From NCBI GenBank assembly GCA_030390025.1, contig CM059431.1, positions 99,264,001 through 99,328,000 of the forward strand: a DNA stretch of 64,000 nt. Reading direction: 5' to 3'. A program made the translations under genes and the position numbers. Source of the DNA: Squalus acanthias. Lineage: Eukaryota. Positions 33,294 through 42,686 of this stretch are shown here, piece by piece. Each line of letters starts with the position of its first letter. Position 1 is the stretch's first letter. The notes under the pieces are model-generated. The model searched no databases. It had not been told where the DNA came from and saw only the letters and a program-made list of their open reading frames with translations.

Positions 33294-34980
33294 TGTAAGG
33301 GTTTTGACACGCCTGAGGCTCTGTGCGTAGCCTGGGTGCTAGTGCGAGGTTAGGCCTTGTTGCCTGTTCTGGTCTCCAGCCAGCCTGATAGCACTAGACA
33401 CCTGTGAGTGGTTCGACCCACTCGCCCTTACGGTTCTGACACTGGACTTAGATGCGAGAGCAATAATGCAGAGAAAACTCAGGTAGACCCGGTTGAATAG
33501 TGCGAAATGGAAAATCTTTATTGCATATTATTCAAGATTACGAAATACATGTCATAAGCACAGATTAATGACAGTACAATCTTACACGCAGTTATGTAAC
33601 TAATTTTAGGGAAACGAGGAGCGCACGACACATCGAAAAAGGGGGCACACATTACAATTATCCTTAAAACTTAAACCCTCCCCTATCAATACCTGACCTA
33701 AACTAGATTTGTAGGATCGAGACTCATGCTCACCACTCGTGATAACTCGGAGAATTCCGAAAACTCTGCTCGGATGTTTTTACCGCAGCACCTGACCACC
33801 CACGTGTTGATCAGGGGTCTCTGTACCCCACTTGTTTACTCGTTTCTGCTCCGGCTAGCAGGCTGGATCGTCTGCTGTCATGAAGATCTGTGTTGTCCTC
33901 GGAGTTCCGACACGACTCAAAAAATAGTCTTCCTGTGCCCTCGCCCCGATGCGATAAAACTCGAAGAATGGTCTTCCTGTGCCCTCACGCCAGTTTGTAA
34001 AACTCAAAGAATAGTCTTCCTGGGCAAGGAAAGTGTTTATTCGACCTACAGGCGCGGTCGGGGCTTACTGACCGTGGCGATACGTATGGTCGTCTTCTTC
34101 TCTTCTCTTCTCATCTCATCTCATCTCATCTCGGGCCTTCGGTTCCAACACCGTTTACCGACTTCCCGGGATGGTGTGCCCGTTTCAAGGCTTCACAGCC
34201 CAGTTCCACACAGATCTTCGCGGCAAGCCACGAGGTTGATCCTGGCGGATCAGAAAGTTCAATAGTCTTCCAGCAAGTCGAGCAGCAAGAGACAGGATCC
34301 AAGAGTCAAGAGGCAAGAGACACGAGGCAAGCGGCAAGGAGTCAAGAGACAGATGGACGGTTGTACCTTACAGTTATAGTGCTGCAATTCCTCTTTTCCC
34401 GCCCAATCTTAATGTATTTTCTTTTGTCAGGGTTTTGGCGCTCAAACTTCTTGTATAGGGTGATCTCCGTTTTAATGGGTTTCGGTGATACTTGTAACTG
34501 TCTGAGTACCCGTTAATACTTCTCCCATTGTGTAACCGGTCAGTATTCTCCCTGGAGGGCTTTTGGGGCTTTCAAATGTTTCTGTAACTACCCGCAAACG
34601 GCTCTCTCATCGTAGAGTCGTGGGGATTTTGCATATTAATGTCTTTGGATGGGTTCTTGATCGCTTGGTACAATAGCCCTTATTTGCACCTGGGAGACCG
34701 ATTCCAGTATTTATGTGTAAAATGCAAACCCATTATGTCTTGTGATTTATCTCAAATGTGCTGAGTCTTGTACGATCTCGCACAAATGTTTACTGGAACG
34801 CCATCTTGTCTGCTTATCGAAAAGTCTAGAATGTTCTGCCACGAGGCGTGGCGGCCATTTTACAGGCTGCTTGTGTCCACTTTGGAAACCTGACAGCATT
34901 CTGCTGAAATAAAGCTGTTTGTACGAAACTATGTGTCTCCTCCTTATTTATAAAATCGCGATAATATTGCGAATTCTACA
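33294..34980 (-). repeat. 3' LTR (1687 bp)
   Basis: Minus strand TGTAG...TTACA; preceded by PPT AACAGGAGGGAC (34981-34992). Confidence 0.93.
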
Positions 34981-35429
34981 GTCCCTCCTGTTGATGCGAA
35001 TAACTCCGCTTATCGTATCAAAAATATTGTGGTGAGCAATATTATCTCGATTCTCCACATCTATGAATTCCCATAACTTAAACTATCTAGGGTCTCTGTG
35101 TCGTCCTTATTTCCCAGGAAAAACTACATTCTTATAACACCGTAGGCAGCATTTGCCTTTAACTTACACCACTTGTTTTTCCTTCCAGGTGTAACCAGGC
35201 CGATGCCTCTCGCACCACCTGTATATGCATATTTTTTATTCAAGGAAAAAGAAAACAAAAACAAAACCAAACAATCATATTCAACAACAACACCATCACC
35301 AAAATAATCAAAACCAACTCTTAAACATGTAGAGTTCCAAACGCAATTACAGTTTCTGAGAAAAATCACGATCGATTACAACACTTCCGAGGCGCACGTG
35401 GCAAACGGGAGTGACGCCATTTTGTCTGA

Positions 35430-40995: not shown

Positions 40996-41000
40996 TTTTC

Positions 41001-42686
41001 TGTAAGGGTTTTGACACGCCTGAGGCTCTGTGCGTAGCCTGGGTGCTAGTGCGAGGTTAGGCCTTGTTGCCTGTTCTGGTCTCCAGCCAGCCTGATAGCA
41101 CTAGACACCTGTGAGTGGTTCGACCCACTCGCCCTTACGGTTCTGACACTGGACTTAGATGCGAGAGCAATAATGCAGAGAAAACTCAGGTAGACCCGGT
41201 TGAATAGTGCGAAATGGAAAATCTTTATTGCATATTATTCAAGATTACGAAATAATGTCATAAGCACAGATTAATGACAGTACAATCTTACACGCAGTTA
41301 TGTAACTAATTTTAGGGAAACGAGGAGCGCACGACACATCGAAAAAGGGGGCACACATTACAATTATCCTTAAAACTTAAACCCTCCCCTATCAATACCT
41401 GACCTAAACTAGATTTGTAGGATCGAGACTCATGCTCACCACTCGTGATAACTCGGAGAATTCCAAAAACTCTGCTCGGATGTTTTTACCGCAGCACCTG
41501 ACCACCCACGTGTTGATCAGGGGTCTCTGTACCCCACTTGTTTACTCGTTTCTGCTCCGGCTAGCAGGCTGGACCGTCTGCTGTCATGAAGATCTGTGTT
41601 GTCCTCGGAGTTCCGACACGACTCAAAAAATAGTCTTCCTGTGCCCTCGCCCCGATGCGATAAAACTCGAAGAATGGTCTTCCTGTGCCCTCACGCCAGT
41701 TTGTAAAACTCAAAGAATAGTCTTCCTGGGCAAGGAAAGTATTTATTCGACCTACAGGTGCAGTCGGGGCTTACTGACCGTGGCGATACGTATGGTCGTC
41801 TTCTTCTCTTCTCTTCTCATCTCATCTCATCTCATCTCGGGCCTTCAGTTCCAACACCGTTTACCGACTTCCCGGGATGGTGTGCCCGTTTCAAGGCTTC
41901 ACAGCCCAGTTCCACACAGATCTTCGCGGCAAGCCACGAGGTTGATCCTGGCGGATCAGAAAGTTCAATAGTCTTCTAGCAAGTCGAGCAGCAAGAGTCA
42001 GGATCCAAGAGTCAAGAGGCAAGAGACACGAGGCAAGCGGCAAGGAGTCAAGAGACAGATGGACGGTTGTACCTTACAGTTATAGTGCTGCAATTCCTCT
42101 TTTCCCGCCCAATCTTAATGTATTTTCTTTTGTCAGGGTTTTGGCGCTCAAACTTCTTGTATAGGGTGATCTCCGTTTTAATGGGTTTCGGTGATACTTG
42201 TAACTGTCTGAGTACCCGTTAATACTTCTCCCATTGTGTAACCGGTCAGTATTCTCCCTGGAGGGCTTTTGGGGCTTCCAAATGTTTCTGTAACTACCCG
42301 CAAACGGCTCTCTCATCGTAGAGTCGTGGGGATTTTGCATATTAATGTCTTTGGATGGGTTCTTGATCGCTTGGTACAATAGCCCTTATTTGCACCTGGG
42401 AGACCGATTCCAGTATTTATGTGTAAAATGCAAACCCATTATGTCTTGTGATTTATCTCAAATGTGCTGAGTCTTGTACGATCTCGCACAAATGTTTACT
42501 GGAACGCCATCTTGTCTGCTTATCGAAAAGTCTAGAATGTTCTGCCACGAGGCGTGGCGGCCATTTTACAGGCTGCTTGTGTCCACTTTGGAAACCTGAC
42601 AGCATTCTGCTGAAATAAAGCTGTTTGTACGAAACTATGTGTCTCCTCCTTATTTATAAAATCGCGATAATATTGCGAATTCTACA
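41001..42686 (-). repeat. 5' LTR (1686 bp)
   Basis: About 10 differences from the 3' LTR by eye; CCAAT/GC box at 42105-42113, TATAA at 42080-42084, AATAAA at 41224-41229. Confidence 0.93.

Follow-up and report, generated by a model that had tools for sequence, protein, structure and literature searches.

A pol-deleted and probably trans-mobilised member of a young endogenous retrovirus family with an F-like envelope in the shark Squalus acanthias

Results and discussion

A stretch of 64,000 nucleotides of the Squalus acanthias genome (assembly GCA_030390025.1, contig CM059431.1, positions 99,264,001 to 99,328,000; hereafter the window, to which all coordinates refer unless another contig is named) contains at 33294-42686 an element in which a long terminal repeat (LTR), a primer binding site (PBS), gag, an in-frame UGA, an open reading frame (ORF) here called ORFX, env and a second LTR follow one another on the minus strand without any pol domain. 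Very probably it is a pol-deleted member of a young and abundant endogenous retrovirus (ERV) family of a cartilaginous fish, and it is probably mobilised in trans. This reading is carried by the make-up of ORFX, which is what is left of pol around a large deletion, by a pol-bearing sister form in the same genome, and by the dispersal of the deletion in a multitude of copies. All parts of the element described below lie on the minus strand.

ORFX is a remnant of pol

ORFX (39189-38158) follows gag in the same frame after a single TGA, and a Pfam search with it and with the neighbouring frame recovered no domain at E<=0.01, in keeping with the absence of pol domains that the original prediction had claimed. 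Pol-bearing copies of the family were located by comparing the places of the gag-end TGA-CTAG pattern with those of Env; they measure about 5.0 kb from the gag stop to env, as against about 1.65 kb in the deleted copies. In the sister copy L045 the same TGA is followed by a single open Pol frame of 1485 amino acids (aa), which contains RVT_1 (E 1e-35), RT_RNaseH_2 (residues 470-558, 6.5e-21), RNase_H (650-792, 1.4e-19), Integrase_H2C2 (1.4e-17) and rve (9.8e-15) domains and an SH3-like end, while its protease is represented by a weak RVP match and a DTG read in the sequence.

When matched to this Pol, ORFX resolves into three parts. The first (39157-39189), placed directly after the leaky-context stop TGA CTAG, comprises the first 11 codons of pol (LEPTQPAYLCP, vs LEPAQPVYLCP in the intact L045 Pol). 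The second (38923-39156) is absent from the intact Pol and is a filler of about 234-243 nt with coiled-coil-like coding, taken here as 243 nt or 81 aa, within which a 69-nt tandem duplication forms an internal repeat (39035-39106 and 38960-39037). The third (38081-38922) is the acidic C-terminal tail of Pol, situated beyond the integrase and containing two 141-nt repeats 186 nt apart. In BLAST, residues 81-372 of ORFX align with residues 1205-1485 of the L045 Pol at 90% identity over 292 aa, and from about residue 93 ORFX corresponds to Pol 1217-1485. Given that ORFX is composed of Pol 1-11, the 81-aa filler and Pol 1217-1485, it is a deletion of Pol 12-1216 patched by the 243-nt filler and not an acquired gene, and the earlier suggestion that the place of pol is taken by new cargo, as opposed to a simple deletion, finds no support. 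The converse expectation, that degenerate pol might be detected in 37800-39190, is borne out for about 840 nt of pol-derived sequence, but no catalytic domain is found there. A pattern that excluded the family's own continuation after the gag stop had 0 matches in the genome, the pol-bearing form sharing the first 11 codons. ORFX is open over its full length (369-385 aa) in nine of ten sister copies of the deleted form; in the window copy its frame is lost near 38282, where a base is missing.

Copy number and dispersal of the deleted and pol-bearing forms

In the host assembly of 3.7 Gb, a query of 1801 nt extending from the end of gag through ORFX to the start of env matched over its full length at 91-100% identity at all 40 places scored, which were drawn from 4642 first-look candidates. 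A 26-mer of the filler had 1300 genome matches at up to one mismatch (control 0), some being double hits caused by the internal repeat. Copies with the same gag-ORFX-env layout, for which the original prediction had recommended a search, are hence plentiful. A junction variant seen in three or four of the 11 deleted copies had 128 matches (control 0) and the TGA-CTAG junction at the gag end 345, while a 25-mer across the step from the integrase end to the tail, found in the pol-bearing form only, had 926 at up to two mismatches (control 0). Since the pattern settings differ between these counts, both forms can only be put at the high hundreds to about a thousand.

Matches to deleted copies occur on nearly all large contigs. 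We read ten sister copies of the deleted form, which are not all independent because two of them (L013 and L014) are local duplicates. The deletion junction is identical in all deleted copies read. The deleted lineage has existed long enough for divergence to reach 9% (L020), and its frames are kept. Identity within LTR pairs is 98.4-99.3% (98.4% and 99.0% in the sister pairs), and that between copies 89-97%. Both of the complete deleted copies (L015 and L017), which occupy different loci, are flanked by 4-bp target-site duplications (TSDs), GCTT and GTCC. The deleted form hence displays what marks a non-autonomous LTR element: no reverse transcriptase (RT) or integrase, an LTR end, PBS and leader shared with another form, dispersed copies, a common junction and TSDs. 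The deletion appears to have had a single origin.

A query with the catalytic part of Pol was 97-100% identical over residues 1-1205 at 38 of 38 scored places, 33 of them without a stop, and the open Pol frames at these places measure 1307-1509 aa. A segment of 501 nt of a pol-bearing copy, comprising the LTR end, the PBS and the start of gag, is 97.6% identical to the window, and for L045 the identity is 95% across the end of gag, the tail of Pol and the beginning of env. Env hits at 97-98% identity number 61; no fewer than 18 of them adjoin pol markers, and no fewer than 10 adjoin markers of the deletion. Pol-bearing elements with the same LTR end and PBS, as well as the same gag start and env, were one of the things to be looked for, and they are present. 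Against RTs of solved structure, Pol scores 245 bits with Ty3 (in two stretches), 238 with XMRV, 217 and 203 with foamy virus and about 55-61 with HIV, figures that would fit a deep position but decide nothing; the best integrase match among solved proteins is that of prototype foamy virus (PFV), at 1.9e-34.

When the 11 deleted copies are compared pairwise, dN/dS averages 0.39 in gag and 0.23 in env; in ORFX it is 0.60, with 0.45 in the filler and 0.69 in the tail. These are means over pairs that are not independent of one another, and not tests against 1. As judged from these substitution patterns, gag and env have been under purifying selection in the deleted form.

Two further arrangements were seen among the matches. 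Near 143.66 Mb of contig C1, filler matches are spaced by 7,723 and 7,718 nt, which is the length of one internal region plus one LTR, and the deleted form therefore also exists in tandem arrays. At C5:99886809-99888680, only about 415 nt separate the gag end from the integrase-end-to-tail junction, which is a second and different deletion of pol.

Older relatives of the family

A search with a relative of Env from a shark reveals many older Env lineages in the genome. Upstream of eight of these are found a gag with CCHC, an RT, RNase H domains of both kinds and an integrase, and the dual RNase H was also noted in the distant relatives L037, L039 and L040. These eight relatives are too distant to act as helper because their gag and env are just 25-33% identical to those of the family, and within the stretches read none of the eight pol-bearing loci has a PBS for Arg. 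The older relatives as a whole (including L037-L044) are numerous and diverse: their Env shares 34-80% identity with a bamboo-shark protein, and their integrase 51-100% with that of L039. Gag, UGA and a pol with dual RNase H are all present in them, and env overlaps the last part of pol, where a WYHINQLK motif is conserved. In the young family Pol runs about 270 aa past this motif, to which the start of the tail retained in ORFX (NQCKLYKP) corresponds.

Gag and the in-frame stop codon

On the evidence of ORFs, a structure model and the sister copies, gag extends over 39190-40996, ends in a TGA at 39192-39190, and encodes a long N-terminal helix, a capsid-like helical domain and one CCHC knuckle (zf-CCHC, E 0.0013, below the Pfam cut-off). 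In the sister copies it begins at an ATG that overlaps the PBS, and is open over 594-601 aa in six of the nine copies that hold gag. The AlphaFold2 (AF2) model of Gag is poor (pLDDT 52); in it, residues 64-185 form one helix some 120 residues long, followed by a linker without order and then by a helical domain (307-483). All Foldseek matches listed for it are retroviral or Arc capsids, the best being murine leukaemia virus (MLV) 6hww at E 0.0039, and none reached E<=0.001; in a language-model look-up the nearest clusters were those of retrotransposon Gag and PEG10 (0.93). In the window copy the gag ORF spans 40695-39190, and gag is broken by a frameshift, since a run of G at 40670 is one base longer than in the sister copies. 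The same frameshift is present in L017, which lies at a different locus and has an LTR pair of its own. It was either inherited through a replication cycle, in which case gag could be supplied in trans, or is a recurrent slip.

Gag and pol, or gag and ORFX in the deleted form, share one frame in which they are divided by a single TGA followed by C, and the same is true of two older relatives. The context TGA CTAG is found in nine of the 11 copies, and UGA CUAG is described as favouring readthrough in the accessible part of bioRxiv 10.1101/2021.04.18.440353. Hence, the UGA is likely to be read through in this family. RNA structure after the UGA was nothing notable, with z-scores of -0.03 in the pol form and -1.5 in the deleted form, and a search among longer proteins, which is weak evidence on this point, recovered no fused Gag-Pol protein.

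The envelope protein

From the sister copies, AF2 and Foldseek, env (35430-37780) is seen to encode a signal peptide (MERILVLL...), an Ig-like N-terminal part, an RQRR cleavage site, a fusion peptide, two heptad regions and a membrane anchor; a hydrophobic stretch can be read directly after the RQRR site. Eight of ten sister copies have Env open over 783 aa from the signal peptide, and in the window copy the ORF spans 37577-35430, the frame being lost near 37529 through a missing base. With frameshifts in all three of its genes, the window copy is dead.

An AlphaFold model of Env based on a 31-row alignment has a mean pLDDT of 59 and is confident for residues ~235-650. All Foldseek matches listed for it are F proteins of paramyxoviruses or pneumoviruses, headed by human parainfluenza virus 3 (hPIV3) 1ztm at E 8.7e-12, and 247 matches have E<=0.001; VIA-align gave Z scores from 12.8 to 8.7 over 271-339 residues among the 50 entries listed. 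By its modelled structure, then, Env is an F-type class I fusion protein, and in this respect the original prediction of an F-like env was correct. The fold common to the two covers Env residues ~244-660 (Foldseek E 8.7e-12 to 1e-7), but sequence identity in the structure alignments is only 7-16%, and Env differs from the viral F proteins in its additional, poorly modelled N-terminal part of about 230 residues and in being encoded by a retroelement. Foamy virus Env does not appear among the 50 VIA-align entries listed, which excludes nothing, and in a comparison of sequence profiles with solved structures, Env has its best match, a weak one (E 0.0097), in foamy virus gp130 (8rm1). Pfam PF00523 was matched by none of 17 Env proteins, of which those of the window and L016 were scanned at E<=1 and 0.1 and those of 15 relatives at E<=0.01; the Pfam search with the window Env gave no match.

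At E<=0.001, a full HMMER scan recovered 50 relatives of Env. A chimeric shark gene model matches Baculo_F at E 0.0011, below the cut-off. Judging from the source names, the closest relatives are from a skate, at 75% identity, and several sharks, while those that are full-length but distant (17-21% identity) come from three frogs, one of them Xenopus tropicalis. The latter is asterisked, which we read as positive, in the survey table of lokiretroviruses (Wang and Han, Mol Biol Evol 2021, PMC7947760, as far as that paper was accessible). Several shark gene models, named Niban 1-like, ZFP2-like, cadherin-related 5-like and fbxo15 (P0002, P0007, P0010 and P0039), are chimeras that contain pieces of this Env family.

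A model for trans-mobilisation and its alternatives

These observations can be combined in the following model. The complete form consists of LTR, PBS(Arg), gag, UGA, pol, F-type env and LTR, with pol encoding protease, RT, tether-type RNase H, RNase H, integrase and the ~270-aa tail. In one ancestor, codons 12-1216 of Pol would have been replaced by 243 nt, leaving ORFX as an open frame behind the UGA-CUAG stop of gag. The resultant deleted form has retained all cis signals as well as its own gag and env, and has been copied many hundred times with 4-bp TSDs of the integrase type. Its genome is predicted to be transcribed from the LTR and packaged, and then to be reverse-transcribed and integrated by the Gag-Pol of complete copies: as the deleted form has no RT or integrase, the enzymes would have to come from the complete sisters in this shape. 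Gag and Env of the deleted form would join the pool, and readthrough would make Gag-ORFX instead of Gag-Pol. Of the satellite with a helper that had originally been proposed, the pol-less state, the multiple copies and the pol-bearing partner in the genome have stood the test, but there is no cargo gene; nor can the pair be called bipartite, as the helper is itself equipped with gag and env.

Several points weigh against this model. We infer the movement of the deleted copies by the sister Pol from sequence, and the pol-bearing form was read in one copy only, over 5.5 kb (L045). The LTR comparison between the two forms covers the 501 nt that include the LTR end and not whole LTRs. The genome counts differ in pattern length and mismatch limit, which makes the ratio of deleted to complete copies a rough one and no census of full copies. 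The gag frameshift shared by two loci would, if inherited, mean that the deleted form's own gag is dispensable, which weakens the notion of gag being kept for its function, and the dN/dS of 0.60 for ORFX is a mean over non-independent pairs with no test against 1. Finally, none of the runs recorded as RNA contains the stretch, and the joint between leader and env was not seen in the contigs of three presumed RNA runs and one DNA run; contigs of these four runs cover all 30 bins, and contigs of this kind cannot rank genes or show transcripts.

A bolder version of the model is rather unlikely. In it, the deleted form would be no decaying mutant but a selected, long-lived parasite, perhaps still active, of an F-envelope retrovirus that would be the first lokiretrovirus-like lineage in cartilaginous fishes. 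Its gag and env would be maintained by purifying selection, and its leaky stop would yield a fusion of Gag, coiled coil and Pol tail that replaces Gag-Pol in helper particles and thereby confers an edge in packaging or integration.

The main competitor on the nature of ORFX is a satellite or bipartite partner with a newly acquired cargo gene in place of pol. Such a gene would have to reside in the 81-aa filler, which in tblastx against the window and all 46 loci matches only itself, with no counterpart in the L045 Pol, the remainder of the element or the fetched loci, which is (near-)invariant over long runs in the 11 copies with a dN/dS of 0.45 over its 243 nt, and which belongs to a frame open in nine of ten sister copies. 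Yet around three quarters of ORFX are the N-terminus and C-terminal tail of Pol, and the filler has no homolog among longer proteins and nothing at or above 0.8 in the language-model look-up (best 0.78). A pattern aimed at a source of the filler outside the element had five matches, four of which are set apart from family copies by no more than small junction changes, and there was no convincing outside copy. The bipartite part of this idea moreover conflicts with the helper's own gag and env, and we regard the whole as improbable. That the deletion is a one-off at this locus, with all relatives bearing pol, has practically no probability left: pol-bearing relatives do exist, but after testing nothing speaks for it, and it is refuted by the full deletion layout at 40 of 40 scored places, the 1300 filler matches and the ten sister copies read. 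Spread by segmental or tandem DNA duplication, or repeated origin from complete copies, could draw on the duplicates L013 and L014, which are 44 kb apart and have the same flanking ORF, and on the arrays with a period of ~7.72 kb, of which the window copy retains a stump. Against this stand the matches on nearly all large contigs, the private 4-bp TSDs of both complete copies and the divergence of copies by up to 9% while their own LTR pairs are 98.4-99.3% alike; repeated origin is countered by the shared 243-nt foreign filler, which cannot recur. We consider this account very improbable, even more so than that of a cargo gene.

A different question is whether the family is foamy-like (class III) and not kin to lokiretroviruses, which would change the label only and leave the mechanism unaffected. 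The best Env profile match (gp130, 8rm1) and the best integrase match (PFV) point in this direction, as do two statements in the accessible portions of the literature, namely that most ERV RTs of cartilaginous fish belong to clade III (PMC11089739) and that none of six cartilaginous-fish genomes was positive in the lokiretrovirus survey (PMC7947760). On the other hand, the RT-RNase H region scores 237.8 bits with a gammaretroviral structure and 217 and 203 with foamy ones. Foamy viruses have a Gag without a Cys-His knuckle, express Pol from an mRNA of its own, use a tRNA-Lys PBS and carry accessory genes after env. The family departs from the Spumaretrovirinae in each of these points, with a CCHC in Gag, gag and pol in one frame across the UGA, a PBS for Arg(TCG) and only ~440 nt between env and the LTR. 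A foamy-like affinity is thus unlikely, if less so than the alternatives to the mechanism.

The window copy, its cis signals and its surroundings

In a blastn self-comparison of the window, the LTR pair is 99.33% identical over 1784 columns (33202-34984 vs 40909-42691), with 10 mismatches and 2 gap openings. The 5' LTR of ~1.69 kb spans 41001-42686 and the 3' LTR 33294-34980; on the minus strand, the first two letters of each are TG (from 42686 and 34980) and the last two CA (at 41001 and 33294), exactly where the original prediction had put the limits of this near-identical pair. The PBS, TGGCGACCGCGGCAGGAC (40978-40995), is the complement of the tRNA-Arg(TCG) 3' end and overlaps with the gag ATG at 40996-40994; eight sister copies have kept this PBS with no more than one change. 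A T-arm plus acceptor pattern made from the PBS complement had 424 exact genome matches (control 0), and ARAGORN identified tRNA-Arg(tcg) in both of the matching loci that were scanned. Since a 3' end complementary to it is present in tRNA-Arg(tcg) genes of the host, the PBS for Arg, originally described as perfect, is real. At C26:38.99-42.2 Mb (L022-L024), tRNA-Arg(TCG) genes form long tandem arrays that repeat every ~1.62 kb, the unit also including a tRNA-Ser(GCT).

Between ORFX and env lies an AT-rich spacer (37942-38080), which in the alignment of 11 copies contains a variable minisatellite, and in which a pyrimidine tract followed by CAG forms a candidate splice acceptor recognised by eye, near 37950-37960. 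The untranslated stretch after env (34981-35429) includes the predicted polypurine tract, which is present only as a short purine run, AGGAGGGA (34989-34982), adjoining the 3' LTR. The repeat at the 3' end continues for 92 nt beyond the LTR end (33293-33202), with a second PBS followed by the first 74 nt of gag. This extension is specific to the window copy, because the complete sister copies L015 and L017 stop at the CA. Probably it is all that is left of one more unit in a tandem array, truncated where it meets the 3' end of a long interspersed nuclear element (LINE), whose RT ORFs (32420-33108, plus strand) abut the 3' end of the element. On the other side, a 557-aa open frame adjoining the 5' LTR (43164-44837, minus strand) resembles by eye a DDE transposase of the pogo/Tigger type. 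A contig of the DNA run joins 37502 to 38619 and omits 1116 nt.

Seven of the ten sister copies (L011, L012, L013, L014, L016, L018 and L019) carry a PIF/Harbinger transposon ~100 nt after env, at a site that matches 35329-35332 and is empty in the window. Its transposase (DDE_Tnp_4) was detected in L011 (E 6e-38) and L016 (4e-39); in L013, L014 and L018 the transposon has the opposite orientation, with a Myb_DNA-bind_5 ORF first, and L012 and L019 contain short derivatives with matching ends (893 and 773 nt, respectively). The presence of both orientations at one site points to repeated site-specific insertion into the retrovirus.

Comparison with known systems

By their architecture the family's closest counterparts are the lokiretroviruses, whose RT is placed as sister to those of all canonical retroviruses in the accessible part of PMC7947760, and whose hosts are listed there as lampreys, ray-finned and lobe-finned fishes, together with amphibians and reptiles. 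Like these, the family is built as an LTR element with gag, pol and env, combines a tether-type with a retroviral RNase H (in the sister L045), has a class I Env of the F kind with an R-x-R/K-R cleavage site, a coiled coil and a membrane anchor, and possesses a capsid resembling MLV 6HWW, a structure that is also named in the available text of PMC7947760. The window element differs in that it has no protease, RT, RNase H or integrase; given that its sister form has pol, it is a derivative by descent and not a complete member. A further difference is that the lokiretrovirus Env matches PF00523 (E 2.2e-7, in the same source), whereas the family Env does not, the likeness being clear at the level of the fold. 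The host class of sharks and skates is likewise new relative to the accessible list in PMC7947760, the table in that portion scoring 0/6 cartilaginous-fish genomes, so that the original placing of these fishes outside the first-described host range was right; and in the literature, as far as it was accessible, we found nothing that links lokiretroviruses to cartilaginous-fish hosts. The family is plausibly lokiretrovirus-like, a kinship read from architecture and not from an RT tree. Its interest lies in a Pol with dual RNase H joined to an envelope of the paramyxovirus F fold, in a host class that was negative in the founding survey, and in about a thousand pol-bearing copies with open frames in most of those sampled.

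Among non-autonomous elements, the nearest known parallel is BHIKHARI of zebrafish, whose Bik-1 and Bik-2 are described in the accessible part of bioRxiv 10.1101/2024.03.25.586437 as non-autonomous relatives of lokiretroviruses; the same part of that source presents ENS-1 of the chicken as a trans-mobilised deletion derivative of ENS-3/Soprano. Bik-1 and Bik-2, as far as described there, are also multi-copy LTR elements without pol that depend on the enzymes of others, and their Gag has an N-terminal coiled coil and a capsid. They differ in having gag only, while the window element has held on to env and to part of pol, and Bik-1 has, comparing descriptions, a glycine-rich patch vs the CCHC knuckle at the end of Gag here. 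The deleted form, unlike the gag-only BHIKHARI, retains both gag and env, which offers a natural pair in which to ask what a parasitic retroviral genome has to encode on its own.

Many a complete retrovirus is known to be exploited by deletion derivatives, and in this sense the mechanism is ordinary: the element is a genomic parasite of a known sort in an unusual virus lineage. Familiar trans-mobilised examples are ETn, derived from MusD, and IAP I-delta-1 in the mouse, and BARE-2, derived from BARE-1, in barley. With these the deleted form has in common an internal deletion, the LTRs and PBS of its master and a copy number equal to or above that of the master. It is set apart from them by an env that has apparently been kept under purifying selection, and by an in-frame product, predicted to be made by readthrough, in which Gag is followed by a foreign coiled coil and the Pol tail. 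This joining of Gag, behind a leaky stop, to an unstudied tail that lies beyond the integrase in the complete Pol hints that the tail may have a role of its own.

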